Of a stretch of 64,000 bases of DNA, positions 30,141 to 64,000 are shown in pieces. This DNA comes from Mayamaea pseudoterrestris (lineage: Eukaryota): positions 372,001 through 436,000 of the forward strand of contig BROI01000005.1 of NCBI GenBank assembly GCA_027923505.1. The letters are read 5' to 3'. The stretch's first letter is position 1; every line of letters starts with the position of its first letter. The notes beneath the pieces were generated by a model. It worked only from the letters and a program-made list of their open reading frames with translations, ran no database searches and was not told the origin of the DNA. The position numbers were made by a program, and so were the translations under genes.

Positions 30141-30644
30141 TTTGCTGCTACCCTTTCGCTGCTGCTACAAGAAGGTAGTGAGCAAGCTAGATACAGCGAG
30201 TGATGTTGTATGTATTGCCGCTCTTTAAAACTCCGTATGACCAGCGGCGCGCAAGTGCCATTGTGAACCGCAACGGGTGTGCCGCGACGACCTTCCTAAC
30301 CGCTCGACTCATGACCTTGAAAACCGTTCGCTTACACGTGGATAGCTTTGATTCTGTCTAGGGGGCTCGGTTTATGGTTGTGGTTGTAAATGAATAGATG
30401 TAAATGAATAGTGTATTTGTCTACACTTAGTTTCACAGTGAGTATGGAATGCACGTCCATAAATAAATTTTTTCGCTGACGTAAGAAACATCCGTTGACG
30501 TTCGGCGTCGCTCACGATACTTTCGCTGAAAAATCGTGCCAACTGGAAACGAGCGGACTGGAAGAGGTGAAGAATCCTCAACGTTCCCTTCGATAGATAT
30601 ATGTATGTTGCCTCTCCACGCTTAACATCTTCGCTACAACCACA

Positions 30645-33339
30645 ATGCCGAGACGAGTTACTTCCACAAAAGCGAAGAGCAAAAAAGCAGCACGTATCGT
30701 ACAACAAAAGAACCAGCTTCTTGTACAGGAAAGACCCATGGTGATTCCCATGATGCAATCTTTTATCAACTTAGTAACCGGTCTCAATCACCAACAGAAC
30801 CACCGAGACACCCCATTGCCTGCAACCAACGAAGAGGTCGACTCCGGCAACCACGGAGACGAAACGGCCATTACGGAGAATCACACGGCGTCAAAGACAA
30901 CAACAACAATCTCAGACGCAACCCCACAAGAGACAGAGTCGGAGACAATGGATTCTGATCCTCAAGAAATGAATGAACTTGATTCCAATCAGTCAAATCT
31001 CGAGTCCAACCCCGACGAGGTTGACGACGACCATCAGTTCAATACTGACGAGGCTGAATACACGCCCGATGATGACGATGACGAGGATGATGATTACATC
31101 GATGCCGGAGTCTCTCATTCGCGTCGAAATCAATCCACAGGCCACACTTCCACATTAAAGGAGATATCGTCTCGGACACGGCCGACAAGAAGCTTAACTA
31201 CACCAAAAGGAATCAAAGCAGAAAGTAGCAATCCCTTATTCGAACTTGACTCGGAAGCAAATTTATCGGACAACCCGTCATACTTCGAACTCGAAGAGCA
31301 CGAACAGGAGATGCATCTGAGAGTTTTGGAAAAGCTCGAGGAAATCGAGTCTAGTCTTGGTGAAAATAACATTGAATCCATCCTGAAGCTCCCTGTGCCT
31401 GACAAATACGAGTCGTATTTTGCTCATGTCAAAAATACGAAATCACAATTCCAAACATTACGATCGGTCGCAACAACCACTGACTTCATCAACGAGTCAC
31501 AGAAACATATGTATTGGCACAATAAAATGATCGCGAACGAAGACTTCTACAAGGCCATATCCGGTCTTTTCGTGGCGTATGTCTTGTCATGCAACGACCT
31601 TGATGCGCCGCTTCTTGGAGTTGATAACGGAAATGATATATTGATGAAATATACACTAAAAGTCATTGGTAAGTGAATCGCTCTACAGTTTCTTCCTTGT
31701 TTTCTTTGCCCACTAACTCATGCTCATTTCCATCTTCTCGTCAGTCGCAGCAAAGGATAGTAAAGATTGCGATAATTTGATGTGCATGATTAACTATTGG
31801 GCAACTGAAGCAATCAAAGAAGGGTTGGAGATGGAGAGTGCAACCTGTATAATTCCCGACGCATATGAATTCGATCACAGCACGAACATTCTGGACCGAA
31901 AGGCTGATGTCATCCTGCGTATGCATTCATATGGAAACATTATGGCTCTGTTTTTATCGATCGCGAATATTGTACTTCTTGGCAACGAAGGAGCTGGAAA
32001 AGCCTTTGATGAATACACCAAACGTAACCAATGCTTTGTTCGTCGGTTCTTGACTGCTGCATTCAATCCTAAAAGCATCGACAACAAGAAATCATGGTAC
32101 TGTATGAAGCATCGTTCTTCAGCTCGCGCGATGTGCCACTTGGCATATGCGCCTATCTTGAAAGACGTAAGTGGAAAGCATGTCCTGTGCCGCGGTTCGT
32201 GTTAGGTCGTTATCTGACTGATCCATGACTGATCCACGTCTTCTCAGCCTCTTTTCAAAGACCCGTACAGTAACTTGGAAAGCCATTGCAAAAATAAACT
32301 GGAGTTTTGCAACTTGATCATCAAGACGGTGGCTCAATCGTTGATTGCGTCTTCTCTTTTTGCGAACGTTATAATTCATATCATGGGGTCGTCCTTCTCT
32401 CGTCAGCGTTGCAACCTTGTAATCGATCGCACCGGAAAAGAAGATTTACAATTCACAAAGGCGAAGCTTGATATTCTCAACAAGAAGGAGATTAACGAGG
32501 TTCGCCAGAAACAGATCCTTCAATTGTTCCAATGGTTGCAAAAGGAGTTTCCGGTGGCAGAGAAAGTAAGCGAACAAATCGCAACGGGGTTTGGTACGGA
32601 TTTGATTGTGTCGTTGCTTTTGCGTCAGTTCATAGCTCCAAAATCCACATTCTGTCAGTCACTGAAAGTTCTAAAAGAAGCGACGAAAGCATCATCTATC
32701 AATCGATCAAGTGCAAAGCGAAAATTCGAGCAATCAGATGCCGCGGAACCTGTCGGTGCAAAGACTGGTAATTGGGATCCACATAACGAGAACGTGAAAA
32801 CTGGTGGATCGTTCATGCAGGTATTCACTGAGGTGGCATTCAAGACACTGGCTGCCGTGTGCTCAGATTCGGAAGCCGAGGGTCTCGAAAAAGGTGGATT
32901 TAAAAAAATGGTCTATAATCACTTCAGGAATGATGGCGACAAGGAATATATGACCAAATGGATGAAGATGTTCTATAACTCAATGAAGGTTACCATCGAC
33001 ACTTTCAAAAGAAGCGCAGTATTCGACATGTTCACACGGTTGTTCGATTCAGCTCTGCAGCATTATGCCGACGGGGATTTGACCATGACACCCTCAATTC
33101 TATTCAGAATTGCAGCCAATTCTCTAAATGATGATGCTCGGATTACAGAAATCGAAGCAGAGTATGAAGCGGATCTGAAAGCTTGTAAGCGTTGCATTGA
33201 AAATTGCAAGGGCGATGTCAAAGAAACATTGACACTTGCGAAGAAGACTCCCCAGTTTTATATCAAGTTCTTCACCGACGACGACCCGGTCTATCATATG
33301 TTTTCAACATTCATTGATATTGGTCTGACACACATGTAA
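30645..33339 (+). CDS. Hypothetical ~845-aa cargo protein with an acidic disordered N-terminus; 3 exons (introns 31669-31744 and 32167-32247)
   Basis: Both GTAAGT..CAG introns with branch-point-like ctaac/ctgac join three ORFs in frame. Confidence 0.75.
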
Positions 33340-33510
33340 TAAACCGATGTATACACACGACAGAGCGAATATGAGGAGCGAGTGATGGTTGTGCCGATCC
33401 TATAGTCTATGTTCGAATTAAAGTGATAACTTATAATCATCGTTATCTTATATCTTCACTTTCTGTATAGACCGACATTACGTATCTCCAAGTCCAAGGT
33501 CTCTGGCAAA

Positions 33511-34236
33511 TCAATGCTCCGTTGGACGACCAAATATGCCACCCAACAATTCGGGGTAGGAGGTGGCGAAGTCATGGTTAAGGACCTCAAAGTCGTACAT
33601 GGATTTGATCAAGGCCTCGATGGTGTTATCCTGGAAAACTATAAATGGATATTTTGTAAGTATAAGATTAACACACCAAACATTGAACAAACAGGAAAAC
33701 TTACAATCATCAAGTGGTCGAACCCGATCTCTGGGACTGTAGTCCATCTTGCGAATGTTGGGAGGTGGATACTTGCTTGTCTTGTCGCCACGCAGGATTT
33801 CTTCCATGATTGCCATCGTCTCCATTCGCTCCGTTGGTGCAGGAGGTGCTTCAAATTTACGAACAAACACGGCTCTTGGGTATGCTTCCCCAGATGTGAC
33901 GTTCAACTGCAACATACTCTCGCTCGTTCCTGGAACACGACGGTTGAAAACCTTGAGATCGATTTCTTTTGCGCGTGCCGACAGCTTGTGCGGATTCTTG
34001 ATGCCATCCTTCAATGGAAAGTTATACGCGTCCTTTCGTTCCGTGCTATCTTCGTAGGTTATAATCTGCAACGCAAGATCAGGATGGACAGAGTGCGTTA
34101 CAAGTCTGGCTTCCGTTCCTTTTCCTTGTTTGACGTTGCTGCTGCGGGGCGGAGAAGCCCGGACCACTGGGGACGAATTCGCCTTGGTAGGGCTTTTGGT
34201 CTCCTCTTTACTCTTGGCAGGGGTCGTCTTGGTCAT
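33511..34236 (-). CDS. Hypothetical cargo protein (copy 1), probable in-frame 66-bp intron 33639-33704
   Basis: ORF conserved in both copies; SP/K-rich N-terminus; AT-rich gtaagt..atag segment whose removal gives ...LDDFFQDNT. Confidence 0.65.
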   Translation of the reverse strand: MTKTTPAKSKEETKSPTKANSSPVVRASPPRSSNVKQGKGTEARLVTHSVHPDLALQIITYEDSTERKDAYNFPLKDGIKNPHKLSARAKEIDLKVFNRRVPGTSESMLQLNVTSGEAYPRAVFVRKFEAPPAPTERMETMAIMEEILRGDKTSKYPPPNIRKMDYSPRDRVRPLDDCKFSCLFNVWCVNLILTKYPFIVFQDNTIEALIKSMYDFEVLNHDFATSYPELLGGIFGRPTEH

Positions 34237-34258
34237 GTTTCAGGATTGATTTTATGAG

Positions 34259-35265
34259 ATGTTTCCTCGCAACTTGCTGTACTTACATCACCAATTTAAT
34301 CAATATTCGGCCTCCAAATATTCAGTGCAAGACTCGACAACATATACGGATCTTAACTTTCGTCGACCTGTTCGGTAATCGTACATCCGTTTACTAACCG
34401 ACTCAGAAATATAAGACCAAAACAACGTTCTACAACACTCAACGGATCTACGAATTTTTCGTTTGGGAAAACGACTCGGACGATTTTGACCAAAGAGAAT
34501 TCACAACTGTGGAAAAATAACTTCAACGGTTCCCCGGCGCGAATTAAATGGAATCAGCTTTCGCACGGAAGCCTCACAATATCACGGTCAAACACGATAA
34601 CTTGATGGACATGAACCCACATAAACTGCAAGGATGTACAACAAGAACAGTAGATGACGTACTCATTCGAGAAATATACTTTCGCATGAAACTTTCGTCC
34701 AAAGTCATCATCGAATATATCGTTACAAATCGGAACGCAACTCACATGAATACCGCATTGCTGCAAAGTTTCACGGGTGCAATCATATACGAGACGTGCA
34801 TCGCAGCAGATTTGCTAGGAGTCAACCTTTTGATTATGGCGAAAGATAAGTCGGACTTAAATTCCAGAAAATATCCGGAAATGACTAACATTGCCCCGCA
34901 CCGAATAGACAAGTACACTACGCTTTCATGCGCAACGGGAATCACAGCGGACACATGTCCTGATGGAGCGTATCAAGACTGCATTCGACAACCTTTCTCG
35001 AGCAACTCAACTTACGTCCATAGCATCGTAGACGAACTGACCCAAATATCAACAACCTTTGCCGAAAAATGAGGCTTCCTCAAGTTTGATACGGTTGCGA
35101 ATTTAGTCATTGCAATTGACAACGAGGTTGCAGAATTCGCAGACTGCTTCAACTGGTTACCCGACAACGCATCGTCCAAGTTATACTCTATGGACCACAT
35201 TATCAAAGCCGGATATGAATTGGCTGACATTATGTTGCTTACTGTACGCTTGCTAAACAGATAGA
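34259..35265 (+). pseudogene. Hypothetical ~330-aa cargo gene (copy 1), with frameshifts and a TGA where copy 2 has CGA
   Basis: Comparison with 43655-44654; stop at 35070-35072. Confidence 0.5.
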
Positions 35266-35897
35266 TAAACAGATATCAAGTCAACAGCACTAACGTTACA
35301 TCACTAGTCTTTTCGAATTATCCAAGGTGGTGAATAAGAACAGAACATGGCGATTTCGTCAATATTCTCGTATTCCAACGACCGCCATTCGAATATTCAC
35401 CTGGGTCCTGAATCTGTGTTTCTATCTCTAGCACCGGTGTGTTGTGGCCCTGTGTTTCTATTTCAAGCGTCCCTGTGCTGGGTGAAGGTTCTTCCAGACC
35501 AATGGACATGACGGCATCCAATACATCCGCTTTTCGTTTCATATAATGAGTCTGCGAACGGATCAACTATAGATTCTTCTTGAATGACCGTTACAATTGG
35601 ACGGAAACGAGATGGCTTGAGTTCTGCTTGTATATTATTAGAACACGACGATCGAGCGTTCCAACCAGAACGAGTTTATCCTCTTCCCCATGCCACAATT
35701 GGTGGGGGCGTACCGTTGAATGACATTTCCGTCATCGGCGAAAAAGAATAACAGCCCTGTTCAACAAACTGGAATTTCGGACGCTCGAACGCCTTCCAAG
35801 CCTACCATTCCACTCTCGTTGTCATCGAATATTCGTCTTCTATGCTTGAACAATATTTTAACTCTTGTCGCTACATCAAACAATACAATTCGAAATA

Positions 35898-36273
35898 ATG
35901 AATGACTTTGGCATCTGCCATTGTTCAATGACAGAGAGACAGCGCTCGATGGTAAATTCCTCGCGAACACGAATTTTGCATCCGTTGCATTCGAAAATGG
36001 AGCGAGACAGAGGCAAAGAAGAAACAATGTCCTCGTTGTCCATTATGTCGGAGATGGTACACGATAATAATCAAGTGCAAGGAATTGTCGAACCGCGAAC
36101 TATTCACAATAAGAGTTTCTTAGAGCAACCGCCGGCAAATACAGAATAGATACTCTTGTTGCTACTATCTTTGTATCATAGCGTCTTTACAATATGTCCA
36201 GGGCGTGTCGCGCGCGTATACTTACAAAGTTGGGCTTGCATATGCGTAGAAACGAGATTTCATCAACGCCTAA
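35898..36273 (+). pseudogene. RING-finger gene copy 1, frameshifted
   Basis: Duplicate of 45290-45666 with indels and a Cys-to-Phe change in the first ligand. Confidence 0.55.
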
Positions 36274-36979
36274 CTCGAGCGAATCACTATCCGAGATTAA
36301 ACGTTCCAACGGCTCGAGAAAAGCGCACGATTATCCAAACCTTCCGGACGTCGATGAGTCAATTGTCGGCGTGGCGTTCAGACAAATACTACCTATTATT
36401 CGTTGGTGCAGATGAATCGCGACTGATGCCTTTGCCTGCCGGCTGCGGAACTTTGTGGTGGATAAGGCTGGCATGTATGCGGTAACCAAGTTATGGTCAC
36501 AAGTTGAAAATAGCCAACGAAGCGATAATGTCAATGCATACAAGTATGTGTCAAGTGTCAAGTTATCGAACCTAAGAAAATCGACCTTCAATATAAACGG
36601 AGTTGGCGAATTCGACCGTTGAGTTTTCTCCAAATGAGGAAATCATGCCTTTGGATATAAACTAATCGTCAATTGTACTCCTTCAGGAACCGACAGCTAT
36701 GTAACGAGGCAATTACGATTGTCCATAAAAATCTAATCGCCTGTAAATCCCAGACAAACAAACAACACTTACACCTGAAGACGGTTGATACCTGTTTCAT
36801 ACCACGATTACTTGCGACATTTAACGGTTACGATGTGGATCTTGTACCAAGCTCCACCCGCAGTTCACACTAGCTGTAAGTCATTCGCCGATATTGTTGA
36901 CTGATATAGAAGCCTTATAATTGGTGAACAATAATGATGATTGAAGTGACAAAACAGGCAACAACAGATTAGAAGTGGC

Positions 36980-39092
36980 GATGGGAAGAGTGGGAAGAGG
37001 AGATTGTCTGGAATGGAACTGGAGCTGAAGGACAAAAGTACATGCAACACGATATAGAAATTTTGTTTCTGACCTGTGATGACTGGATGCGGCACGGTGG
37101 ACCTGCCCCGATCTCGTGATGCTATTCAATGAGATTCGAGACCAAGTGTATGGAATGCCAGAGTATTTTGTAGATGCCGTGGAACGAAATGCTAGACAAG
37201 ACAGAGCCAGAATTGTATCGTCGCATAGTATGTGAAGGCAGGGAAGGCAGTCATTGGTACTTGCTCAGGGTCATGAACCGTTTCGAGTGTTCTCCATACA
37301 ATTGGGACGGAAATGAGTGGCGTTTAGCTAAATATAATCCGGAATTGATGGAAGACTTCACCTAAACATGTCACGTTAATCTTGAGCTCTATCAAACTAG
37401 TACGGAAGATGTTATTTTCATAAGTTACTACTGCAACCATCATGACGGGTTCGCCCAATAACTCAGTAGGCCGACATTCACAAAAATCACGAGTTGTCGA
37501 AACGGAGCCGTCGCCTTTGGATATAAACTAATCGACGATTGTACTCCTTCAGGAACCGACAGCTATATAACGAGGCAATTACGATTGTCCATAAACTCTA
37601 TTCGCCTGTAAATCCCAGGCAAACAAACAACACTTACACCAGAAGACGGTTGATACCTGTGTCGTACCACGATTACTTGACTATTTAACAGTTACGATGT
37701 GGAGCTTGTGCCAAGCTCCACCCGCAGTTCACACTAGCTGTAGTTATTTCGCCAATATTGTTGACTTTCATAAAAGCCTCCTAATTGGTGAACAATAATT
37801 CTGACTGAAACAATAGCAATCGTAATGGCGAAGTCAGGAAGCAAAACAGGCAGCAACCGATTCGAGGAGACGATGGAAGAGTGGGAGGAGGAGATTATCT
37901 GGAATGGAGGTAAAGAACACAGGTCTTTCAAATACAATTTGGACATCTTGTTTCTGTCCTGTGATGACTGGATGCGCACGGTGGACCTGCCGCCGATCTC
38001 GTGATGCTATTCAATGAGATTCGAGACGAAGTGTATGGAATGCCAGGGGATCTTGAAGATGCCGTGAACGAAATGCTAGACAGGACAGAACCAGAATTGT
38101 ATCGTCGCATAGTATGTGAAGGCAGGGAAGGCAGTCATTGGTACTTGCTCAGGGTCATGAACCGTTTGAGTGTTCTCCATACAATTGGGATGCAAATGAG
38201 TGGCGTTTAGCCAAATATAATCCGGAATTGATGGAAGACTTCACCTAAACATGTCACGTTAATCTTGAGCTCTATCAAACTAGTATATAAGTTACTACTG
38301 CAACCATCATGACGGGTTTGCCCAATAACTCAGTAGGCCGACATTCGCAAAATCCCGTGTTGTCGAATTGAGCGTTGAGTTTTTCGAGTTCGGGAACTTC
38401 GATATAAAACTCGACAATTCATTACTTCCTTCGGGAACCGCAGCTATGTAACAAGGTATTTCGATCGTCCGTCAATTCATTCCTGTATTTACCCCACAAA
38501 CAATTACAGCTGATCATCAAGCATGTATGCGCTTCGCCATTATCGCGAGTTGTGTCCACGAAATATCCTGAAATAGGGCAACGACAACAAAGGAGTATGG
38601 ACTACTGATGCCATAAAATCGTCAGCATACACACATAGTCACTCTTATCCGAACAACCGCTGTAATGGTCAACCAGATCCCAACGCACATACGCACTCAG
38701 ATGATCGAAGAGGCCTGCGCAGAAGCGGAAGACAGATCGTTCGGAACGCCGAAACTACTACAACGACAAACAGAGCACGCGCTATTTGACGATGCGCATA
38801 ACTTGGACCTTATGCTTCTGGCCTGTGACGATTGGATGCGTAACGGTGGATCTGCAGCCCAACTGGAGCTATACAATCACATCCGTTCCGAGATGCCTGG
38901 AATGGGGAGATGATTTCGTTACCGTAAACGAAATGTTAGACACGACAGAACGAACTGTATCGTCGCATTGTAGTGCGAAGGCAGCCAAGGCAGTCATAGA
39001 TATCAATCATGGCCAACAACGATATCAGCAGAGAGTACACGTGGGATGGAGCACTGCGCTGTGCTCAAGCAGACATGGAATGGATACGTTAA
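36980..39092 (+). pseudogene. Frameshifted copies of the three 'CDDWMR' paralogs (copy 1)
   Basis: Collinear with 46366-48519; indel density rises towards the junction. Confidence 0.7.
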
Positions 39093-39164
39093 TTGTTACT
39101 TGAATTATGCCGCTTTAAAGTAGTGTTAATCTATAATACTCAATATAGAATCACTCATATTATA

Positions 39165-39800
39165 TTATTCAGATATGGACTTGTCACGATTTCGTGCAGT
39201 GATCTCGACGCGACTGCGATCGACCAAATCTATCTTACCATTTCCTGGACAAACTTTTCACTGTCGACCGCAGAACGGAACTTGAATCCGCATCTTGGTG
39301 AGATGTACATCTTGTCGACTTTTCTTGTGCGTTGGCGCGAGGAACATTAAACTGTATCCACCCAGGTCCCCATTGTCGCAGACGTATAGTCGGTTCTCAA
39401 CGACGGTAACTGATACGACTTAGCATTTGCTTCCAGGTACTGAATTGCCTTTATATGAGGAGCATTGGCATCAAACCAATAGGATTATCATACCTCGAAC
39501 AAATGTGTGAGTCTTCCTTGTGTCTCCACCACAAAACCATCCGGGACACAACATAAGACTTCAGTGGAATTCACATATTTACTATGAGTTTGATATCTAT
39601 CCAAGCAAATAATCAGCGTTTTAGAAGGATCCCGATGAAAACGTAGCATCTTCTGTTTCAAAGAACGAACTCCACATCTTCACCTGTTCTTAACAATCCT
39701 TCACTGGTCGTGGTCCGAGAGAGCTGGCACACATCAAACTATTAACGAGCCGAATCTAAACACACTGCTGTGTCTGATTTACAATTTACTTTCATAATGG
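39165..39800 (-). pseudogene. Degraded copy of the MBD-like gene at 48592-49251
   Basis: Collinear sequence (cggaacttgaatccgcatcttggtgag..., ccacccaggtccccattg) with many indels. Confidence 0.75.
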
Positions 39801-40051
39801 ATAAGGCAGAGCACGAAACGCCCGTTAACGAAAAAGCATGTATTATGAGTATGAAATGCACGTCCATAAATAAATTTTTCGCTGACGTAAGAAACATCCG
39901 TTGACGTTCGGCGTCGCTCACGTACTTTCGCTGAAAAATCGTGCCAACTGGAAACCGAGCGGACTGGAAGAGGTGAAGAATCCTCAACAATTCACTTCGA
40001 TAGATATATGTATGTTGCCTCTCCACGCTTAACATCTTCGCTATAACCACA

Positions 40052-42735: not shown

Positions 42736-42906
42736 TAAACCGATGTATACACACGACAGAGCGAATATGAGGAGCGAGTGATGGTTGTGCCGATCCTATA
42801 GTCTATGTTCGAATTAAAGTGATAACTTATAATCATCGTTATCTTATATCTTCACTTTCTGTATAGACCGACATTACGTATCTCCAAGTCCAAGGTCTCT
42901 GGCAAA

Positions 42907-51381: not shown

Positions 51382-51598
51382 TGGACCGATACGTATAAAT
51401 AAAATTTGCATTGGTAAATATAAGCGATACACCATCGCGACAACAAATCTTCACAATGTCACATGAGTACTTGGAGGACTCAGTCAACTGTTGTCGCCTT
51501 GCTCAGTCGCGATAAATCAATGATTGTTACCGACCCTTTCATAAAACGATCGCATCAATGCCCTAACATAAAATCAATTCTTTACATCAACAAGTAGC

Positions 51599-52135: not shown

Positions 52136-52259
52136 AGCAACACACAGAGGGTACTGTTTAGTAGTAGTCTATTAAACAGTCTAAGTATGAGCTTATAGAC
52201 GGGTTGACATCGATAGTTCGAAACTTCCTTTGCCTTTATAGGAACGATTATTCTATCAC

Positions 52260-53141: not shown

Positions 53142-53263
53142 GTGATTTGAAGCGACAGAACGAAATTGTCTAGCATAGTTTATTAGTTAGGGGATTTTTA
53201 GCAATTTACAACATGTAGATTGGACTGAAGGGACATCAATAAGATTACTGAATATTTGCAACT

Positions 53264-54013: not shown

Positions 54014-54429
54014 TTTGTGTGCTAAACACTTCAGTAATGGAAAGAAGGGATTGTTGTTTGTTGGTCGCTCACTATCTCACGATATTTGTGAACGTCAAGT
54101 TTTCTGCGGATCATGATCGTCAACGCTTATCATCAACCCTAACTCGCTACTACACAATCGCGCTATAACGGTACGACAACAATCACGACTGGCACCTCTG
54201 CACGAGCCGGCGCCTTTTCGTCAACTAATTTGGCGACTATAATATAACTTCGTAGCGTATTCCCGCGACAATTATTCGTGCGAACCTCTTTACGTCAACA
54301 ACCGTTGAACACGAAGCAGGATTGATATGCTTCAACGCCACAAAGTAACATCGACCGTTGAAACAACGTTTAGCGAAAGCGTCAGAGAGTAATACTCAAT
54401 CACTTGCATGCCTCATGCAAATATAAGAC

Positions 54430-55297
54430 ATGGAGACCCACATACCTAAAATTCTGTTCCTTGGTGCGTCTTATACTGACATACGACCGTATCTGCAAGC
54501 CATTGACCCGATCGTATCGTGTGGTCAAAATCGGACACTTGAATTGGATCGCGTCATTGCCTGCGTCGAGTATAATCACATTTCGGAAATCGACGGCCGA
54601 GACCTGTCACGGATTGTCGAAACTGAGCGAGAATGTAACGTCGACGTATACACTGTATCCCTTGCGGAAGCAGCAAAATACAAAGAAAGTCGTCACTACA
54701 GCGGTAATTTTAACAACCATCGCTTTGTTTCAAGTTTAAGACGGCATTTTGTCAACGCAGCATTCGATCAGGTGACCTTGGATTATTATTGGCAACCAAA
54801 TTCAGCCATGCGGGAACACATGCGACCTGAGTTTTTCTCGAAAACACTACCCGAGTTAGCGATACATATGCTCAGTCCTCACGCATGTGTCTACCTTCCA
54901 TTCTGCGTTCATACGCTCAAGGAGACTCTGATACACAAGGCTGTACTGTCGCGACACTATACTGTAACATATCTACCAGAAAGCGAATTGGCAGAAGTAT
55001 TTATCTGGCGGGGTACACAAGCAATTGATGGCGACATAATGCAGGAGGTATTCGGAAAGAATAAATCACAGGTAACGAAACGGTAATGTTCAAGTCGAAA
55101 TTCACGCGACGTCTAACCATGTATTTGTTTATTCTCAGGAAGATAAATACTGCAAGATATCAAAGCAAGCAATTCGTCAGGACGACGAATACCCCGAATT
55201 ATCCAACAAGGATGTCATACATTTCTGTCAAACGATCGGCGACCTGAAATCAGTCCGTTTCATCAAACTAGAACGTCATGATACGGACCGCACTTGA
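54430..55297 (+). CDS. Hypothetical protein, possible Rossmann/methyltransferase-like fold (intron 55072-55138)
   Basis: Phase-0 GT-AG intron with ctaac branch site extends the ORF to TGA at 55297; ILFLGASY and FDQVTLDYYW segments. Confidence 0.65.
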
Positions 55298-55366
55298 GCG
55301 AATATATCATACGGAGTACTAATTTTAATTGTGTTATCTTTACATCGAATCGTATGTCTGTATTCG

Positions 55367-58300
55367 TTAATTTACAACACCTTCGAACAAATGCAACACC
55401 TGCTCGTCCGTGGCAAGAACCTTCGTACGAAAATATTCCATCATGTCGAGATACTCTTCGTTAGGTTCAAAATCAAGGTCAACAGGCACAGGTGCCATGA
55501 GAAACAGTCCCGCAAGTGACTTGACACGCGACAACGCAACATAAAACCAGTTCTTCATACCCTTATTTGCCCACTCGACAACAACCAACTCATCCAATGA
55601 TTTACCTTGCAGCTTATGCACTGTAGTCGCATGATTGATGACGACCGGAAACTGCTGAAGCTTTATTCCAACTTCTTTCCTCCGTTGAGACTCTAATCCG
55701 ACATCAAGAGGAAAACGCACCTTATAGTTCTTTCCTTGCGACTCCAAACGAAACCGACCTTGAAAGCGTCCACCGATCCACTTTAACTGTAAGTGGTCAA
55801 CGTCAGCAGCGTCGACCGAGTTGACCCAATATCCGTTAACCTGAATTGGCATTAATCTCACACCGGGACGAAGAACAACCTTGTCAAGTACCGCTGTTGT
55901 TCCATTGGCTATTCCATTCCGGACATCCTTGTTCTGGTTACTCATCAACGGACATCCTTTGTAGAGTTTCAAGAACGGATCGCATCTTGTGTCAGCTGAC
56001 TTGACTTCCGATTCACCGCATTTCTCGAACAATACTTTACGCTGTCCAAAGCACAACTTCTGCTTTGTGCTACTCCATACTGCACCAGCCTTAATAACAA
56101 CAGCAGACAATGGTATGGTTCCAGGCTCGGCGGTTGCATTTGAATGATAGGTAGCTAAATATCGCTCGTATAAATGCTGATTGATAGCATCACGCGACTT
56201 GTTGTAACACACCGCATATTGAATCATATTCGGATTCGATATCTGCAATGGACCCCTTTGAATGTTTTGAGGGTCGTAGCTTCCAACAACTCGAGAGTTT
56301 AACAGACATCTATGCTCATCGGAAAGTCCTGTTTTTCTAAGCGAATCCATAATCTCACCGTAAACTGGATCATTTACGAACCGCCATTTTCCTTCTAGTT
56401 CCACCATACAATTCACCCCCAACCACCAAGGTACGCATGTCTTTTCTCTGTACAAGCTATGTTTTCCGATAGGTTCAAGCTGACGGAAATCGCCCAGCAT
56501 GACAACTGGAAACTTGCCCATCAATGTATCTCGATCTTCCGTTAATTCTCTCAAATTGGAGTCCAAATCCTCAAGGAAGCTAGCATCGGCAAACGAAATC
56601 TCGTCAATTATGATCATTCTCGTGTCCTTAAACGATATTCTACTATCGTTGCTTATATCGCGTTTCTGTACGCCCTTGTGCATGGCGATCTGAAACTCGG
56701 AGTGACTAGTTGTACCTCCAATCTCACACGCTGCTGCACCCGTCAACGCAGTGAGTCTGATAGTGCCTTGAGTAAATTCATGATCAATCATCAAGCTAAA
56801 CGATTTTGCGTAGGTAATGAATTCTTTCAATATCGCCGACTTTCCTGCTCCAGCAGGACCAGTGACAAACAGCCGCAGAGGAGATCCATCGACCGATAGA
56901 GCTCGGCGTGCGAGCATCCTTAACTTGATAATATTCGTCTCGAAGTCTCCTCGCCGTGCATCATTTTCTTTCCAGTCATTTCGGGCCTCTTCCATGAAAC
57001 TCAAGACATATGTTGAAGCCAAAATATGAAAACACATCTGCTGTTTCTTGTCAAGTCCACAAGCTATGCTCCAATCAACGATAGATTTCCAGCTTCCACT
57101 AGCTATTACACCATTATTAATGGGTTCCACAATTAGTAATGGTGTAGCTTCGTTTTCGATATCCGCTGCATGATCAGTTGACAAATCATTGAATTTAGAA
57201 AACACGATGCTGTTCAGCTCCGATGTACACGAAACAAAACGCGTTGCATTCACTGTTGTGTGTTCAGGTTCAGAGACAGCAGATGTTGACGAGTCGAAAT
57301 GCAAAAGTGGTTCCGATTGAATGTCGCTCGAAAATGTTCCAGCTGTGCATTGCAAATTAATCTCCGGTGGCAATTCCTGACTGAAATTAAACGAGACAGG
57401 CTCTGCTTCCAAACCTTGAAACGCACTACTCGCGAGATATTGGTATAATTTGGCCATCTGCTGGTGACGTTGCATATTGTCGAATTCCTGATTGTCAATT
57501 TCTGAAGGACCAGATTCAGCGAGTTCAGTTTCCAAGGATACTAAATTAGGTGGAACCTGCGACGCATGCGAATTAGCCAAGGAAACTATATGATCAGCAA
57601 TTGTAAACATTTCGTCACTTATTTGTCCAGATTTCTTCGCTTCCAAGAACGTTGCTTGATAAGTACCAAGACTGGTCATGTCGCCTAAGGACCTGAAGGG
57701 CAGAAACAGAATCATAAATTTGAAACAATATTCCTCCTTGCTCTTAAAATCAGGGCTTGTTTCGTCGGGGTCAGTATGAAGAGACGTCAGAAAAGAAGAT
57801 GTATTACCCAACCAAGACCATGAAAATACAGGAACGGCCTTGACACCCTTACGCATAACAACCGACTGACACTCTGCCATCGGATGAGATTCGAGTAACT
57901 CGTATCGTTCCTCCATGACATCAAGTTTACTTGTTGCAACCACCTGGTATCCCTCGAAATAAGAATAGAGACATTCGTTCTCACATGTAACAGGTCTATG
58001 CAAATAATCAAGGGCTTTGTGGGTAATGTACGTTTTCTTGTTCCGTGTCTTGTAACTCATTATGACAAACTCGTTCTCCAACATCTTTTGCAGCCCATAA
58101 CATGGCAAATAGACGGCATCATGCGAATACTGAAAGCGCGACCCAACTAATGCAAGGTGCCGCGCCATAGGTGCAGCAACAATATGTGTACCAGTGTGGC
58201 TATAAATCCCCGCAAGCAAACGGCGAAATCCAACGCGATGGTCATCAGAAAGCGGATCCTCGAGTGTCTGATCGCGCTGAAGCATCCTGCATATTACCTG

Positions 58301-61141
58301 CGCGACTAACTGAAATGCCATCTGCTCTTCCTTTTGCTGGGACTTCACCTGATAACCAGTAACATACATTACAGCACGCCCGCTTATTCCAAAGGTTACA
58401 TTATTGTTGCAACACAGCAACTGAGTGATACCGTCATTGTTGCGGTTCATGAACACATCCCCAATATCACGCTTGGGTTGGAGAGTGAACATATACTCAA
58501 TACTTTGGAGCCCCATAAAATCCGACCAAACGTCAGGTTTTTCACAATACACAAAGTGGTCGCTAGAGGACACCGCCTCAGGAAGGTTAGCAAAACATTC
58601 ATCGCCTTTTTTGAAACATCTGGTTGTGTGTGTGGGAAAATGCGAGTTCACAGCAACATTAGCAGCGAAACGTCTCAGACATGACTCCTTCGACTCTTCG
58701 ACGTCTGAATACCAACTGAAATTCTTCTGATCTTCGTAACATTGATAGTTAAGACGCGGGACTGACTTTTCGGGGTAGTCAAACTTTGAATATCCTTCTC
58801 CATGTATATTGCTACCAAAATGGGTATCCAACGCACGCTTGATAATATCTTGCACCGTGAAAACAGTCTTGCACATTCGACAAGACGCAATAGTACCCTT
58901 GTGCGTAAGACATTGCTTCTTGTGACGCATTTGACGTATACAGTCATTGCCAACTGATTCGATTTCACCTTGTACATGACTACCTGTCCACAATCGCTTC
59001 CGCCTGCAGTCGCAATCGAAAACAGAATGCGAAGATAATTTCCCTCCGGTGCCAAAATCACCAAACAACGAAGCTGAACAAATTCCAGAGTAATATTCCA
59101 AAACATTGGAAGCAAGACGAGTAAATGACGCGGGTCCCGTTTTTTTCTGTAACGCCAACTGAACTGCAGGCCAGTGCTTAATAAACAATAGAAAATGGCC
59201 ATGAAGCGTTTTGCGGCCCTGTTCTTCCGTCGCCAAACACCACGCCACCATGTCTCCGAATATGCCGATTCCCTTACTCTTCTGATTGTCTATATCCCAA
59301 TTGAACAAATGACGAATAACAGCTTTCACAACGCGTTCATATTCCTCAGCGCACAATCCAGGATGCTCGTACCGAACATCCTGACGCATCCGAAAGTTGT
59401 CGATAATCTGTCGGTCAGTAAGGCTCGCCACGTTGACTGTGCTGTCGGGATTATAATTTTCTTTGCCGAGGGCGTAAACAACAATGCGATAGTTGCGCTG
59501 GTCGTCCGGTGAAACCGTTAGAAAGATTGCGGGCATCCCGAATTTCATGAGGAACGAGAAATATACTTTTCGAGCCTCCTGCGACGCTTCATTTGTATGC
59601 GGCAAGTTCTCACATACCGCTGTTATACTGCGCAGAAAACGATGCTCTGTAGTACTTCTTCGGCTTACACCATGCTGTTGCTGACAGTCTGTAATCGCCT
59701 TTTCAAACTGATCGTGGGACATGGTACCATATTTGTCTGCAATGGAACGACCATCTGTTTGTTTTATATTACACTGAATCACAACACTTTTAAAGATGAT
59801 CTCCTTGAGAATAAGATTTTCGATAACCAAAACAAACATAGGTCCATGAAAGACAGATTTGCGATGCCGAAGATACTTCTTGTAAACATCGATACGATTT
59901 CGACTGCATTGATTCTTGTTTCCTTTTCTCTTCTTCAATTTCAAAACGGCCGGGTCATCAGCTAGACCGGTAAATCCATACGGAAACTGCAAAATGAAGG
60001 CATCTGCAATGGTGTCCCCCTGAAAGTCCATGAATTTATCTGCAGAAGGCCGAGCGTGCATCTGCGCCTCGAACTTCCCTCCATTATGTTCCAATACGTA
60101 TCTGCGGAATTCATCCTGTGTCTGAAACGTTCCATTCATGCGACCAGGAAGTGTGACATCAGGAAAGACATGGGTGATACTCATTTCGTTCTCCACATCA
60201 ACGCTTACACTCCTTTGCCATTCCACCTTATCTTCGACAATTCTCGGTATTGGCAAGCTGGCAGGGTCGGGTATATGAAGGTCCCTGTAGCGGAAATTGT
60301 TCACCTTCAACCAATTCCAAGCATTTATCACCTTTTCCGGATCAACACGGGTCTTTTGTAATACTTTGGCTTTCTGCGTCGATGTAAAGGGTCCGCACAA
60401 GACAACAAGTAGTCTCCCATGCAAGCCAGAATCCTGTATTTGCATCATATTCGCAACGTTCGTCTCAGGATGATTTTTTAGTAGTGTAGTCCATCCTTTT
60501 ATTTGTTTGTGACAGCCTCCAAAGAACACCCATGTTTGACAATGAAGTTTGGCTTTGCATACCAATGCCAATTCAACTTCGTTAAGACACTTGAGCTCTT
60601 CAGGTTCATGACCGATAACGTAGCCGTTGGCAATTGACTGCCGCGGCGGACGGCGTCTGTCTGCATGCTTCACTTCTGCGTTAGTCTCAAGGTCAGCCAG
60701 ACACTTACGACATATGCTTATTTCATTCCTTTTGTTCACAAAAGCATCAGGTGATAGAACATAATCCTTTAACGTAGGATGAGTTGCAGTGTATTCATTT
60801 AACAACTCTATTGGATAAACATCCGAAAGATCAGTCTTCCGCATCTTAGCATTCGAACAAAGAGACGCAATTCTTGCAACTGATACCATTTTATGCCAAT
60901 ATGCTTCATCTGGTATTCCGTCACAAACGCAGCAGAAAACTGCATGAAGAGTTTTAGTCTGGGGCTCTTTAATTACATAACTTTCGAGCTCCTGAGAAGC
61001 CCTGGCTAAAAGTTCGCGTTTGGTCTCCGTCGATGGTATTGCGAGACGCATTATTGCAAAAAGATGTAAAACGAATGTGATATGCATGACACAGACAAAG
61101 ACATATGTATTATGATAACACAGCCTTCTACAAATAAACAT
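55367..61141 (-). CDS. Helitron RepHel transposase (HUH Rep endonuclease plus Pif1-family SF1 helicase), intact; likely start ATG at 61051
   Basis: Rep motifs IFLTVSP, EEQGRKTLHGHFLLF (HUH) and YVTGYQVK (two Tyr); helicase motifs GPAGAGKS, IIIDEISF, LGDFRQLEPI, QFPVVINHATTVHKLQGKSL and YVALSRVKSL; Cys-rich N-terminus with 'SIANG..IG..PEEL..L..VE..LV'. Confidence 0.93.
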   Translation of the reverse strand: MFICRRLCYHNTYVFVCVMHITFVLHLFAIMRLAIPSTETKRELLARASQELESYVIKEPQTKTLHAVFCCVCDGIPDEAYWHKMVSVARIASLCSNAKMRKTDLSDVYPIELLNEYTATHPTLKDYVLSPDAFVNKRNEISICRKCLADLETNAEVKHADRRRPPRQSIANGYVIGHEPEELKCLNEVELALVCKAKLHCQTWVFFGGCHKQIKGWTTLLKNHPETNVANMMQIQDSGLHGRLLVVLCGPFTSTQKAKVLQKTRVDPEKVINAWNWLKVNNFRYRDLHIPDPASLPIPRIVEDKVEWQRSVSVDVENEMSITHVFPDVTLPGRMNGTFQTQDEFRRYVLEHNGGKFEAQMHARPSADKFMDFQGDTIADAFILQFPYGFTGLADDPAVLKLKKRKGNKNQCSRNRIDVYKKYLRHRKSVFHGPMFVLVIENLILKEIIFKSVVIQCNIKQTDGRSIADKYGTMSHDQFEKAITDCQQQHGVSRRSTTEHRFLRSITAVCENLPHTNEASQEARKVYFSFLMKFGMPAIFLTVSPDDQRNYRIVVYALGKENYNPDSTVNVASLTDRQIIDNFRMRQDVRYEHPGLCAEEYERVVKAVIRHLFNWDIDNQKSKGIGIFGDMVAWCLATEEQGRKTLHGHFLLFIKHWPAVQLALQKKTGPASFTRLASNVLEYYSGICSASLFGDFGTGGKLSSHSVFDCDCRRKRLWTGSHVQGEIESVGNDCIRQMRHKKQCLTHKGTIASCRMCKTVFTVQDIIKRALDTHFGSNIHGEGYSKFDYPEKSVPRLNYQCYEDQKNFSWYSDVEESKESCLRRFAANVAVNSHFPTHTTRCFKKGDECFANLPEAVSSSDHFVYCEKPDVWSDFMGLQSIEYMFTLQPKRDIGDVFMNRNNDGITQLLCCNNNVTFGISGRAVMYVTGYQVKSQQKEEQMAFQLVAQVICRMLQRDQTLEDPLSDDHRVGFRRLLAGIYSHTGTHIVAAPMARHLALVGSRFQYSHDAVYLPCYGLQKMLENEFVIMSYKTRNKKTYITHKALDYLHRPVTCENECLYSYFEGYQVVATSKLDVMEERYELLESHPMAECQSVVMRKGVKAVPVFSWSWLGNTSSFLTSLHTDPDETSPDFKSKEEYCFKFMILFLPFRSLGDMTSLGTYQATFLEAKKSGQISDEMFTIADHIVSLANSHASQVPPNLVSLETELAESGPSEIDNQEFDNMQRHQQMAKLYQYLASSAFQGLEAEPVSFNFSQELPPEINLQCTAGTFSSDIQSEPLLHFDSSTSAVSEPEHTTVNATRFVSCTSELNSIVFSKFNDLSTDHAADIENEATPLLIVEPINNGVIASGSWKSIVDWSIACGLDKKQQMCFHILASTYVLSFMEEARNDWKENDARRGDFETNIIKLRMLARRALSVDGSPLRLFVTGPAGAGKSAILKEFITYAKSFSLMIDHEFTQGTIRLTALTGAAACEIGGTTSHSEFQIAMHKGVQKRDISNDSRISFKDTRMIIIDEISFADASFLEDLDSNLRELTEDRDTLMGKFPVVMLGDFRQLEPIGKHSLYREKTCVPWWLGVNCMVELEGKWRFVNDPVYGEIMDSLRKTGLSDEHRCLLNSRVVGSYDPQNIQRGPLQISNPNMIQYAVCYNKSRDAINQHLYERYLATYHSNATAEPGTIPLSAVVIKAGAVWSSTKQKLCFGQRKVLFEKCGESEVKSADTRCDPFLKLYKGCPLMSNQNKDVRNGIANGTTAVLDKVVLRPGVRLMPIQVNGYWVNSVDAADVDHLQLKWIGGRFQGRFRLESQGKNYKVRFPLDVGLESQRRKEVGIKLQQFPVVINHATTVHKLQGKSLDELVVVEWANKGMKNWFYVALSRVKSLAGLFLMAPVPVDLDFEPNEEYLDMMEYFRTKVLATDEQVLHLFEGVVN

Positions 61142-61158
61142 ATCGAGCGTTGAGGCAA

Positions 61159-61237
61159 AATTTCAAATTTCGCCAGCACGTACCAGCAAAACGATTCCTT
61201 CTCGTTAGGCGACGCGAGCGTGCTGGCGTTTGAAATT
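61159..61237. other. Inverted repeat / stem-loop immediately upstream of RepHel
   Basis: aatttcaaa(ttt)cgccagcacg at 61159-61180 pairs with cgtgctggcgtttgaaatt at 61219-61237. Confidence 0.75.
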
Positions 61238-61448
61238 GCTGTATAGCGGAATTTATCTATTTCGAATCCGTCAAACTACTTTTCGTGTCGAACGACAAGT
61301 GCTTTTCAGTTCATACGCTAACAAAAGGGGTTGTTCCGCACACGGTCGGCACAGTGTGGCCACAGGTCCAACACGATACACAAATCGCGAAGCCAAAAAC
61401 AACCGTCTACAAGCTAAATAACAATAGAAACACATACTATGTTGCCGA

Positions 61449-62402
61449 TTACTTAACTACGTCGACCCATTGATATCTTTTACGTCGAGCAATACCCTCC
61501 TTTTGTTGACGGCGATCTATCGCAATATGTCTGCGTGCCTCGAACTCCGACCTTGCAGGATTACGTTCCCCGCCGTACCGATGGAACAACGTCAAATATC
61601 TCTTCACTTCCGGAATGGATCGAAACTTGAAACCAAAATGATTTGTGTAATAGTAAGTGTCGAAACGAGCTTGCCTTTCCCCATTTCGCGAGACGCGCTG
61701 AACACGAGACTGTATCCATCCTCTATCCCAAGATATTTTCCTGCAATTGACCGGAGCGAAGAACTTACTTCCACACGATTCTCGCAAGCGGCTGTCCATA
61801 ATTACTCGCAGCGTGCGATATCTCTCTTTACACTCACCATCCGGAAGATAACGAAAGAATCGAGATAAATACGGCTTTTCGAATTCCTTATCGACCGTAT
61901 ACCCCATGCGCAGAAGTTCGTGAGCTCGCTCGTAAACAGCGTCAAACCGACTTCGAAACCTGTTATCCACAATACAGAATATGAAGTCCGTCAATGCATC
62001 CCCGCCTTCCTGGAACACTGATTCGTTGTCATTCGCAAGCTTCACCACATCGTTTACACCCGATGATCGAATTATATCGACGAGGGAGTGATTCAATACT
62101 TTAGATTCAGCCAACAACACTATAAACCATTCCAACAGAAGAGGCAACGCTTCAGTCTCTTCAGCCGAAACCGAAGTGCTATCCCATGAGTGACCTCTTT
62201 CAAGAAGCATCAGAGATGATCCGATCAAGCAAACTAGACGAGCCAAATGAATCGAGATGCGAAGGTAAACGGAGATGTCAAGATCGCTATCGCAGTTTAT
62301 CAAAGGACAACGATCGCTATCGCAGTTTATCAAAGGAGGACGACTGATGTTGATGGATCCGTTAGCGACCCGGCAGGAATCGCGCGCCGGGTGGTCGTCC
62401 AT
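61449..62402 (-). CDS. MBD-like domain protein 4
   Basis: WDRGWIQSRVQRVSRNGERQARFDTYYYTNHFGFKFRSIPEVKRYL; LLRMGY...LSRFF; true start may be downstream of 62402. Confidence 0.8.
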   Translation of the reverse strand: MDDHPARDSCRVANGSINISRPPLINCDSDRCPLINCDSDLDISVYLRISIHLARLVCLIGSSLMLLERGHSWDSTSVSAEETEALPLLLEWFIVLLAESKVLNHSLVDIIRSSGVNDVVKLANDNESVFQEGGDALTDFIFCIVDNRFRSRFDAVYERAHELLRMGYTVDKEFEKPYLSRFFRYLPDGECKERYRTLRVIMDSRLRESCGSKFFAPVNCRKISWDRGWIQSRVQRVSRNGERQARFDTYYYTNHFGFKFRSIPEVKRYLTLFHRYGGERNPARSEFEARRHIAIDRRQQKEGIARRKRYQWVDVVK

Positions 62403-62696
62403 TATTTCGCTGAAGCCGAATCACGTCAAGCAACTCAACGGTCGCACGATATCGGGAATCGCCATAAATGGCGACGTCTGTATAACAACGCTAAGTCACT
62501 AAGAACAAAGCCTGTAAATAGCCAACGATACATCATCGATGACAATGTCTACAATTATGCGTTGAGTTTTTCCGATCACGAAATTTGCTTTCCATATAAA
62601 CGAGATGTCGAAATCGAGCGTTGAGTTTTCTTGAACAGAGGAAATCACCTTTCGAAATAAACGAACTGACGATTTCTACCCTTCGGAAACGAAGAG

Positions 62697-63359
62697 ATGC
62701 TGTTACGAGTTGCACAAGTGCCAGCTTCAAAATGTTGTGCACACGGAAAATTACCCAACATTGCAATTAACTTCATGTACTGTGTTGCAGTGTCCAAAGT
62801 GTACAACATGTCGCTGATACAAGCGATTGCGAGACACGGTTCCCAAAGTCTATGCAAAATGATTCAAACATTGACTTGCTTGAGCACAGAACATCTCACC
62901 CAAGCTGTAATGAATAACGTAAACGACAACCTCCACAAGGACTTCAAGGAAACATGGACGCGAGTGGAGTCTCACGTGCAAATGGGTTTTGGAATGGAAC
63001 TATCTAACAATGAATACATGTTGTTTCGAACTCACATGCACGACAATGCGTCAGACACAAATCACTATGGAACTCTTCTTCGGTCGTTAGAGTCGACGAA
63101 AGATTGGGAAAAACTCAAATACTCCTGTCCCATAAACAACAAAACGATGAATTGGAAAATTGGCTGGATACAAATACGCAAACGACGACGCGCGCAGTAC
63201 GGCAGGAAACATAGATACGACAAGTTTTACTATTCACCGAAATTTGGATACAAATTCCGTTCGATCGTCGACGTCAAAGCGTTTGCAACCCATGTCGAAG
63301 AAGCGCAATCAAGTTTTGGCAACAAATCCGAAACAGTGGCTCAAAATAAAGTGCGATAA
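62697..63359 (+). CDS. MBD-like domain protein 5
   Basis: WKIGWIQIRKRRRAQYGRKHRYDKFYYSPKFGYKFRSIVDVKAF; HVQMGF...MLFRTH; true start probably a downstream Met. Confidence 0.8.
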   Translation: MLLRVAQVPASKCCAHGKLPNIAINFMYCVAVSKVYNMSLIQAIARHGSQSLCKMIQTLTCLSTEHLTQAVMNNVNDNLHKDFKETWTRVESHVQMGFGMELSNNEYMLFRTHMHDNASDTNHYGTLLRSLESTKDWEKLKYSCPINNKTMNWKIGWIQIRKRRRAQYGRKHRYDKFYYSPKFGYKFRSIVDVKAFATHVEEAQSSFGNKSETVAQNKVR

Positions 63360-64000
63360 TGGATAACAATCGGCGACATTTTCACATAACACGTCATTGA
63401 AACATGGTAGCAAACATTGTATAATTAGAATCAGTATCCATGTCAGGTTATTCAATATCCATCTTTTTGAACTTCAGAAAACATGGATCGAACTGCCCAA
63501 GGATGAGCCCTCCGTGATCTTGTAACAACCGAAATATACGAAGCCAAGCTATACGGTCAACCAAAGTGAATTGTGTTGTGTACAAACGTCAGAAAAGGAA
63601 AACACAGTAGGAGCAACCAACAACATGACATCGAAACGATACTTCAATGTAGCATGCCTGGCCACAGAACGATGCAGGTGATCGGTACGAGGTCACTTAA
63701 ATGCTGCTTGAACTCCTTCCACTTTGGTAATTAGACCAATTGCGTCTGGATTGATATTAAAGAGCAAAAAACGGAATGAGAACGTGCTTATTGCAATCAA
63801 TCGAGACGAATTGTAAACTCAGTGCTTTGCACAACTCCCCAAGCATTCTCATTTGATGAGCTCATTCATTTCAAGAACTCTCCAGCATTCAACCAAATTT
63901 GGTAAACAGTTCCATTACACTATAGAACAAGTGTATGAACGGTATCAACATGCCGAGAACAGACTGTAGCAAGCAGTCGATGAAACGAATACACGGGCGC

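Follow-up and report, generated by a model that had tools for sequence, protein, structure and literature searches.

An HLE2-type RepHel linked to an MBD-like gene in a putatively composite, Helitron-derived gene island of the diatom Mayamaea pseudoterrestris

Helitrons take up host DNA mostly as fragments, and few cases are known in which whole genes travel with an autonomous element. Here we describe a 64-kb stretch of the genome of the raphid diatom Mayamaea pseudoterrestris (the window; contig BROI01000005.1), which is intron-poor and gene-dense and which carries, right of the KDEL receptor gene ERD2, a gene island with an open reading frame (ORF) for the Helitron transposase RepHel. Among the closest described systems are the HLE2 elements of the Helitron2/Helentron group, which are characterised by 12-16-nt terminal inverted repeats, a terminal stem-loop and insertion between T and T. 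PMC11417382 reports DUF6570 as the HLE2 marker that separates HLE2 from HLE1, twenty extra domains as stably carried by Helitron-like elements and, in its supplement, HLE2 in both of the two Bacillariophyceae genomes sampled. Helitron-like elements of up to 39,893 nt are present in Repbase, 75% of the autonomous ones being under 12,338 nt, and the Phytophthora proto-Helentron/HelenPi572 is described with an unusually long 5' part that was missed by software (PMC11417382). The HELPO1 Helitrons of the fungus Pleurotus ostreatus, 6.6-13.7 kb long, have captured whole genes, and each holds between one and four of them downstream of RepHel (PMC4289320), and for Helraiser the bypass of the 3' end with transduction of flanking DNA has been shown experimentally (PMC4778049). 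The repeat table published for M. pseudoterrestris gives zero rolling-circle elements and 7.36% unclassified repeats (PMC9724779 supplement).

An ORF at 5659-6618 has 100% identity to a protein named for M. pseudoterrestris, and the other best named matches from the window are to diatoms too. The window is divided by a sharp border at 30.4 kb. To its left, ten of 13 long ORFs have a Pfam match at E≤1e-3, including GPN GTPase, TGT, MgtE, ArfGap, longin SNARE, SHMT and ERD2, and ERD2 itself (29355-29858, minus strand; PF00810, E 2.7e-37), the final gene of this housekeeping stretch, lies outside the island and marks its left border. From 30439 on, a Pfam match at E≤0.01 is found in just four of 18 ORFs, namely RepHel and three genes with a methyl-CpG-binding domain (MBD); a RING finger and, by a search of the Protein Data Bank (PDB), a MazG/DCTPP1-like domain were found later. 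The first-pass annotation had stated that housekeeping genes end at ERD2, and these counts agree with it. GC content is 48.5% left and 44.0% right of 30439, while the GC content at third codon positions of the two ORF sets (0.518 against 0.482) differs weakly and not significantly (Mann-Whitney p 0.089) and gives no sign of foreign origin. The first part of the island is laid out as a tandem pair of units recognised by blastn self-match, unit A (30439-39848) and unit B (39846-49301), which is considered below together with the read evidence.

RepHel (55367-61141, minus strand) is an uninterrupted ORF of 1924 amino acids (aa) in the window, with a likely start at M31 (61051). It contains DUF6570 (PF20209, residues 163-291, E 1.1e-17), Helitron_like_N (E 2.9e-13) and PIF1 (E 3.7e-20), and in an alignment with seven relatives H647/H649, Y926/Y930, the Walker A stretch G1428-K1434 and D1513/E1514 are invariant. 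By its domain make-up RepHel is assigned to the HLE2 type; its closest database relatives are 41% identical. No Exo_endo_phos endonuclease or OTU domain was detected in the 1924-aa ORF at E≤0.01 and, lacking the endonuclease domain, RepHel is not a Helentron in the strict sense. No further RepHel fragment occurs in the window, and a RepHel profile search of viral contigs gave no relative. The DNA 20-100 nt upstream of the RepHel ATG (61155-61239, minus strand) is predicted to fold into a stem-loop of -23.7 kcal/mol (z -2.74) that is not shared by the related loci.

The key evidence for copying of RepHel together with a neighbour comes from a second locus. A profile of the island's MBD-like genes, run as a full hidden Markov model (HMM) search against 1.84 billion representative proteins, gave 273 matches at E≤1e-3, nearly all of which hit the generic MBD part only (names for ten: five plant MBD proteins, the rest unnamed). 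The top match, P0171 (753 aa, E 1.4e-42), bears DUF6570 and Helitron_like_N; no other of these representatives is a full-length relative of the MBD-like family. P0171 aligns at residues 1-600 with RepHel residues 31-630 (91% identity) and at residues 595-749 with residues 99-253 of the protein encoded by an MBD-like gene, MBD49525 (49525-50295; 79% identity). P0171 is named for the same species and is encoded on another contig of 1,119,184 bases. Logan contigs of four runs were aligned to 44001-64000, of which X1 and X3 are from one sample, X2 is from another study and X4 is of low depth; the joint from 49914 to 59265, which skips 9350 window bases, is found in contigs of X1 (depth 27) and X2 (depth 129). 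At the second locus the RepHel N-terminus therefore passes into the C-terminal half of an MBD49525-like gene, with order and strand as in the window. This fusion indicates that RepHel and the MBD49525-like gene were copied as one stretch, and the P0171 locus looks like an internal-deletion derivative of it. Comparison of the two loci places RepHel and MBD49525 on one stretch in the past, and the copied unit would measure at least 11.6 kb in the present layout of the window.

Relatives of RepHel in metagenomes provide a second line of evidence for a multigene unit. A scan with the RepHel profile gave 263 stretches with relatives, the best 80 of which were kept (L001-L080, 583,914 bases) and their 1004 ORFs clustered with those of the window. 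One recurrent partner emerged, a companion gene of ~230 aa, which lies upstream of and divergent from RepHel in 25 of the 80 loci and is present in 23 of the 47 loci having at least 1 kb upstream; in every locus that carries it the companion is upstream and divergent. The window contains two copies, at 33511-34236 (minus strand, 241 aa unspliced) and 42907-43632, recognised by the companion family HMM built from 27 ORFs of related loci (E 2.8e-22 and 1.4e-22), and tblastn with the window gene finds matches in six related loci. Removal of a 66-nt GT-AG intron (33639-33704) restores the family consensus. No Pfam match was obtained among 17 members of the family (best E 0.047), the best hit of a PDB profile search was a macrodomain at a non-significant E of 0.18, and when an AlphaFold2 model (pLDDT, predicted local distance difference test, 61) was compared with PDB structures by Foldseek, nothing reached E≤1e-3 (best 1.7e-2).

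The window copies of the companion lie 12 and 21 kb downstream of RepHel on the same strand, head-to-head with a MazG/DCTPP1-like gene (43995-44654, plus strand) identified by phmmer against the PDB. Residues 138-216 of the MazG-like protein match the 4qgp pyrophosphatase at E 2.5e-7 and DCTPP1 entries at E 5.7e-5 (7mu5) to 2.5e-3; the ORF ends inside the matched domain and has no Pfam match even at E≤5. One related locus, L046, has a homologous ORF upstream of RepHel (33% identity over 122 aa, E 4e-13), which in turn matches dUTPase_2/MazG-like. A nonsense codon (T at 35070) terminates the unit A copy of the MazG-like gene (34548-35072), the unit B copy is open (C at 44460), and X1 has T where X2 has C, so the stop is polymorphic.

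Comparison among the related loci also defines one element with ends mapped on both sides. L026 and L027 are 99% identical to 878 bp past the RepHel stop and diverge beyond; the 3' terminal ~118 bases, which end in the palindrome AAGGTC-CA-GACCTT, recur in L028 and L021, and the 5' end of the L028 element begins 19 bp after that 3' end in L026. The L028 element accordingly spans positions 156-11374 of its locus (11.2 kb) and contains four genes; its two ends share a 10-nt inverted match, and it has the 3' palindrome. The stretch L026 9505-9714, where two related elements stand 19 bp apart, together with L027 14661-14776 and L028 156 and 11257-11374 can serve as a reference for the termini of this clade. 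Many related loci have RepHel divided among two to four ORFs, as in L001 (4509-5342, 5448-7625, 7472-8881 and 8917-10350). The flanks of 14 long related loci are orphan-rich, 26 of 30 ORFs having no Pfam match, and the four matched ORFs are a Tet-like oxygenase just under the cut-off, a SET, a Ulp1 protease and a BTB ORF. The Tet-like 2OG-Fe(II) oxygenase (L040 5669-6757, 25.6 bits) and the SET and Ulp1 ORFs (L064 7817-8506 and L053 9811-10410) lie a few kb from RepHel. Genes for chromatin or DNA modification may be a recurring neighbourhood of RepHel relatives.

Our data are best accommodated, at about an even chance in our judgement, by a composite, species-specific gene island derived from an HLE2 Helitron and including a co-copied unit, rather than by one intact giant element. 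Such an island would hold a full-length RepHel with its downstream neighbours, a separate companion/MazG-like piece and expanded orphan families. The most likely route is one of rolling-circle transposition in which RepHel would have run past its 3' terminator and taken downstream DNA along (3' transduction), after which an internal deletion would have yielded a non-autonomous derivative that fuses RepHel and the MBD-like gene. The position of the companion, 12-21 kb off RepHel and in a non-canonical orientation, suggests more than one element or a rearrangement, and such a rearrangement, or a second element in the opposite orientation, may have left the remains seen in the left part of the island (30.4-35 kb).

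Several observations weigh against this model and limit how far it can be taken. Terminal sequences of any Helitron type were sought in the window and none was found, so that we infer the borders of the unit, and even its mobility, indirectly. HLE1 ends (5'-TC and CTRR-3') are absent at 30439 and at the unit junctions 39846 and 49301, and the presence of DUF6570 argues against HLE1 as well. Between 61142-64000 and 29900-55366 there are five inverted 12-13-mers against roughly four expected by our own estimate, and the inverted repeats around RepHel are at chance level only. A screen of the window for a palindrome plus inverted match came back empty, as did a search with the termini of the relatives (L021 and L026-L028), which have no window match with up to three mismatches allowed. 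The 5' end may lie beyond 64000. In the 80 related loci the MBD-like HMM has no match at E≤1 and, the companion and the MazG-like gene apart, no island family has a relative there: tblastn of 17 island queries found relatives for just two, 19 HMMs of flank families matched the companion and nothing else in the window, and eight island proteins compared by phmmer with 42 ORFs lying upstream of companions matched none of them at E≤10.

The reads add further points on the same side. At single-copy depth, one contig from X1 (49735-59311, 9578 bases) and one from X2 (50579-59001, 8423 bases) run through the RepHel 3' flank, so there is no repeat border at this place and no identical second full copy in X1 and X2. 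A run of seven A at 59140-59146 (minus strand, codons 667-669) is A8 in X1, X2 and X3, that is in all three covering runs with one contig each from two studies, and it is the sole indel between the window and the X1 contig over 49735-59311. The A8 frame would stop after 26 codons, ahead of the catalytic tyrosines and the helicase, and RepHel may thus be inactive; a haplotype, a strain difference and a homopolymer miscall are candidates for the intact A7 frame. The single uninterrupted RepHel of the first-pass annotation accordingly holds for the window, where the frame is open and no other fragment is present, and is put in question by three runs. Lastly, an ordinary segmental duplication would explain the second copy equally well, and the ancestral unit could have been about 7 kb long if the five genes that separate RepHel from MBD49525 were inserted later.

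The MBD-like family bears on the strongest alternative. Five paralogs flank RepHel, with the genes at 48592, 49525 and 50602 on one side and those at 61449 and 62697 on the other, so the family extends across RepHel as had been claimed at first pass. They are a 219-aa gene (48592-49251, minus strand; PF01429, E 5.3e-8) whose unit A copy (39161-39724) is broken; the 256-aa MBD49525 (49525-50295, minus strand), which has a degenerate MBD motif and whose C-terminal half corresponds to the MBD-like portion of the P0171 fusion; a 259-aa gene, also with a degenerate motif, recognised by family alignment and tblastn (50602-51381, plus strand); a 317-aa gene (61449-62402, minus strand; PF01429, E 3.3e-5); and a 220-aa gene, MBD62697 (62697-63359, plus strand; PF01429, E 5.5e-4). 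Two of the five pass the Pfam gathering score of 21 bits (32.8 and 23.9 bits), MBD62697 falls under it at 19.9 bits and two have no match. The residues of the methyl-cytosine-binding motif of MeCP2-type MBDs appear to be kept in the genes at 48592, 61449 and 62697 and lost in those at 49525 and 50602. Plant MBD7 and proteins like it are matched by the C-terminal 50-60 positions of the family profile; a word-index protein search with the MBD-like alignment gave no match, and the structural model is poor (pLDDT 57.8). Within the gene at 61449-62402, the sole X1 contig differs from the window at eight sites in about 150 bases (61783-61935) and X2 at none, which is explained either by locally divergent alleles or by a paralog collapsed into the contig. 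A non-coding block (62588-62692, plus strand) equals 45980-46085 with 79% identity over 107 columns (E 3.9e-13), in keeping with the earlier statement that such a block is shared across RepHel; it is also common to the blocks upstream of the small orphan genes described below.

In this alternative, a compact RepHel of ~6.3 kb, or an immobilised gene, would sit inside a pre-existing, fast-evolving host cluster, the second locus would stem from segmental duplication and deletion, and the Helitron-linked genes would be present by chance or through a separate insertion. We consider this unlikely while still a serious contender. MBD-like genes on both sides of RepHel are what an insertion into a gene array would leave, and their absence from the 80 related loci fits the same view, as does a RepHel that is possibly frameshifted. 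The older paralogs of the island families show host-like purifying selection, with ratios of nonsynonymous to synonymous substitution rates (dN/dS) of 0.19-0.39. Elsewhere in the genome there are diverged paralogs of parts of the island: an MBD62697-like paralog about 83% alike (X1 contig) and small-gene copies, which count for this view, and RepHel patches. Taken together, these paralogs, with extra contig depth at 59.3-60.0 and 61.3-64 kb, speak for the composite island as well. Against the compact arrangement stands the order and strand of RepHel and the MBD-like gene, which is conserved at two loci, and the sole full-length relative of the MBD-like family in the representative proteins is itself a RepHel fusion. 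The gaps between RepHel and the adjoining genes are 280 and 307 bp, whereas the 3' tails of relatives measure 670-914 bp, and orphan-rich flanks are likewise a property of the related RepHel loci. We continue to favour the composite, Helitron-derived island.

A bolder version of the cargo idea is that an HLE2 lineage moves RepHel together with whole genes concerned with methylated DNA, namely MBD-like readers and a DCTPP1-like pyrophosphatase, and with the companion, in an element of at least 24 kb whose cargo helps it to find or to withstand methylated, silenced chromatin. We regard this as distinctly improbable at present. If it were true, the locus would offer a test case of a DNA transposon against host DNA methylation in diatoms.

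The first-pass annotation had proposed that one giant autonomous element, reaching from 30439 to beyond 64000, moves a set of maintained accessory genes along with RepHel; we think this improbable too. It would account for the sharp change in composition and gene content at 30.4 kb, for Helitron-linked companion and MazG-like genes 12-21 kb from RepHel within the same island, for the copying of RepHel with MBD49525, and for MBD-like genes and a promoter-like block on both sides of RepHel, and the longest Helitron-like elements in Repbase (39,893 nt; PMC11417382) make its size possible. However, no ends were found at 30439 or elsewhere in the window, the right end, if any, lies outside it, and the left border is the start of a duplicate that the read depth fails to support. 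The companion is on the same strand and downstream of RepHel, whereas it is upstream and divergent in 25 of 25 carrying loci; 49.7-59.3 kb is crossed by contigs at single-copy depth; and the related L028 element has just 11.2 kb and four genes. Many genes of the repeated unit have a broken copy, which speaks against the giant element and makes it doubtful that the accessory genes are maintained. What survives of the proposal is that cargo was copied with RepHel, in so far as MBD49525 was co-copied and relatives of the companion and MazG-like genes stand beside RepHel elsewhere; a single element of at least 33 kb is unproven and unlikely.

Size and gene number were also overstated at first pass. 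Aligned over 9523 columns (97.15% identity, 164 mismatches, 88 indel events), units A and B prove to be copies of one 9.4-kb unit, so that 9.4 kb and about nine genes were counted twice. The junctions (39846 and 49301) share TGA but have no TC/CTRR ends and no inverted repeats. In the stretch 44001-45334 the two units are about 99% alike; each run has just one contig there, with depths of 32.4 in X1 and 123.7 in X2, and the single-copy flank at 50671-55339 has a depth of 37.4 and 125, respectively. Two copies per chromosome would about double the flank depth, and X1 and X2 therefore show one dosage. The X1 contig is of the B type at 24 of 26 sites diagnostic for A versus B. The assembly was made from Nanopore reads by merging two assemblies, with an estimated heterozygosity of 2.97% (PMC9724779). 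Given the one-dosage depth and an A/B divergence of 2.85%, close to this heterozygosity, we consider it most likely that units A and B are alleles or were joined in assembly, and less likely that each chromosome has both. Independent short-read contigs from two studies agree with the window over 44.0-46.2, 47.7-59.3, 59.9-61.2 and 61.9-63.9 kb, with 0-8 differences in each stretch. RepHel, its neighbours and the rest of the island beyond the duplicated part are therefore real. That the island as a whole is mostly an assembly artefact, with haplotypes joined in tandem or mis-joins, is thus very improbable: the near-coincidence of A/B difference and heterozygosity, the merged Nanopore assemblies (PMC9724779) and the one-dosage depth over the unit in X1 and X2 are what it would predict, and the independent contigs of two studies rule it out for the part outside the duplication.

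The remaining genes of the island are largely orphans. Unit A opens with two ORFs of 343 aa (acidic) and 161 aa (30645-32205, plus strand), the first of which is frameshifted in unit B; their only Pfam match is a non-significant zf-CW (E 0.053). They are followed by an ORF of 318 aa (32383-33339, plus strand), the unit B copy of which is split into 41631-42314 and 42304-42735. In unit B a RING-finger ORF of 83 aa (45290-45541, plus strand; zf-RING_2, E 3.8e-7) has a unit A counterpart without a match. Several duplicated unit genes have one broken copy, and dN/dS between the A and B copies is uninformative as the differences are too few. Self-comparison reveals three repeats of ~880 bp (46021-48519, plus strand), each with a conserved upstream block and a small orphan gene; the family members, of 127-150 aa, lie at 46372-46755, 47214-47639 and 48067-48519 (plus strand), and their unit A counterparts (36.6-39.0 kb) are partly broken. 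For this family dN/dS is 0.19-0.20 among old paralogs and 0.78 for the youngest pair. The ~880-bp repeats also have in common a conserved palindrome, GTGGAGCTTGTGCCAAGCTCCAC, whose stem is 10 bp long (37699-37721, 46226-46248 and 47088-47110).

Between the MBD-like genes and RepHel lie an orphan ORF of 178 aa without a Pfam match (51599-52135, plus strand), two paralogous orphan genes of 244 and 249 aa (52260-54013, minus strand; 37-38% mutual identity, dN/dS 0.39) and a 218-aa ORF (54430-55086, plus strand) that is convergent with RepHel and ends 280 bp from its stop codon. Twelve orphan ORFs searched against Pfam at E≤5 gave only zf-CW (0.053) and Tim29 (0.031). For 54430-55086 and 53264-54013, the ESM Atlas returned a best score of 0.89 and no family, methyltransferase leads of 0.84-0.89 being below threshold. 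An exact-sequence look-up of ten island ORFs in a public protein collection found one, 53264-54013. Run X4, which is of unknown kind and low depth, covers 53345-54088 and 63406-63947 only. At the end of the window there is the border of a multi-copy repeat (63907-63947), where one to five contigs per run, in all of X1-X4, end or branch at 63907, 63911 and 63947.

Two tandem arrays were noted in the housekeeping part. Seven units of 144 bp (8792-10035), with a core 84-98% alike, lie inside a 401-aa minus-strand ORF; the GC content here is up to 55% and the GC skew reaches +0.2, resembling a repeat-containing coding gene. A perfect 110-bp tandem duplication (12432-12541 = 12542-12651, 100%) is found at the start of an MgtE-like gene (12620-13720).

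Readers of methylated DNA would be a new type of Helitron cargo, and the linkage of RepHel and an MBD-like gene is seen at two loci of one diatom genome. The term 'MBD' does not appear in the main text of PMC11417382 or in the one supplementary file searched, and papers matching a literature search that joined Helitron with methyl-CpG-binding domain had neither term in title or abstract. Helitron-like elements have so far gone unrecognised in M. pseudoterrestris, consistent with the zero in its repeat table (PMC9724779), and the related metagenomic loci bring out a conserved two-gene core of a ~230-aa companion and RepHel in 25 cases.

With the HLE2 group the island shares the single ORF with an N-terminal DUF6570, the Rep domain with HxH and two tyrosines, and the PIF1 helicase, and metagenomic relatives of its RepHel have a short inverted end match and a 3' palindrome as described in PMC11417382. 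Unlike the described HLE2 elements, the window element has no endonuclease or OTU domain, its termini were not found, and its companion has no Pfam, PDB or fold match. The Phytophthora proto-Helentron/HelenPi572 is likewise a stramenopile HLE2 with domains of chromatin type, SET and TIR (PMC11417382). Comparably, SET, Tet-like and Ulp1 domains are found next to relatives of RepHel in metagenomic loci; the accessory genes are different. With HELPO1 the window shares orphan genes that were co-copied with RepHel and are located downstream of it; HELPO1 differs in its canonical T[C/G] 5' and CTRR 3' ends, its AT targets and its mapped ends and copies, whereas the present case is HLE2 with MBD-like cargo and ends that were not found. 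For Helraiser/Helibat, bypass of the 3' end is the same mechanism as proposed here for the genes downstream of RepHel (PMC4778049), although that system is HLE1, was studied in cell culture and mobilises mostly gene fragments and promoters, whereas whole genes and an inferred mechanism are at issue here. Set beside these systems, what is new is a diatom HLE2 lineage with a conserved companion and, in this species, a RepHel-linked MBD-like gene.

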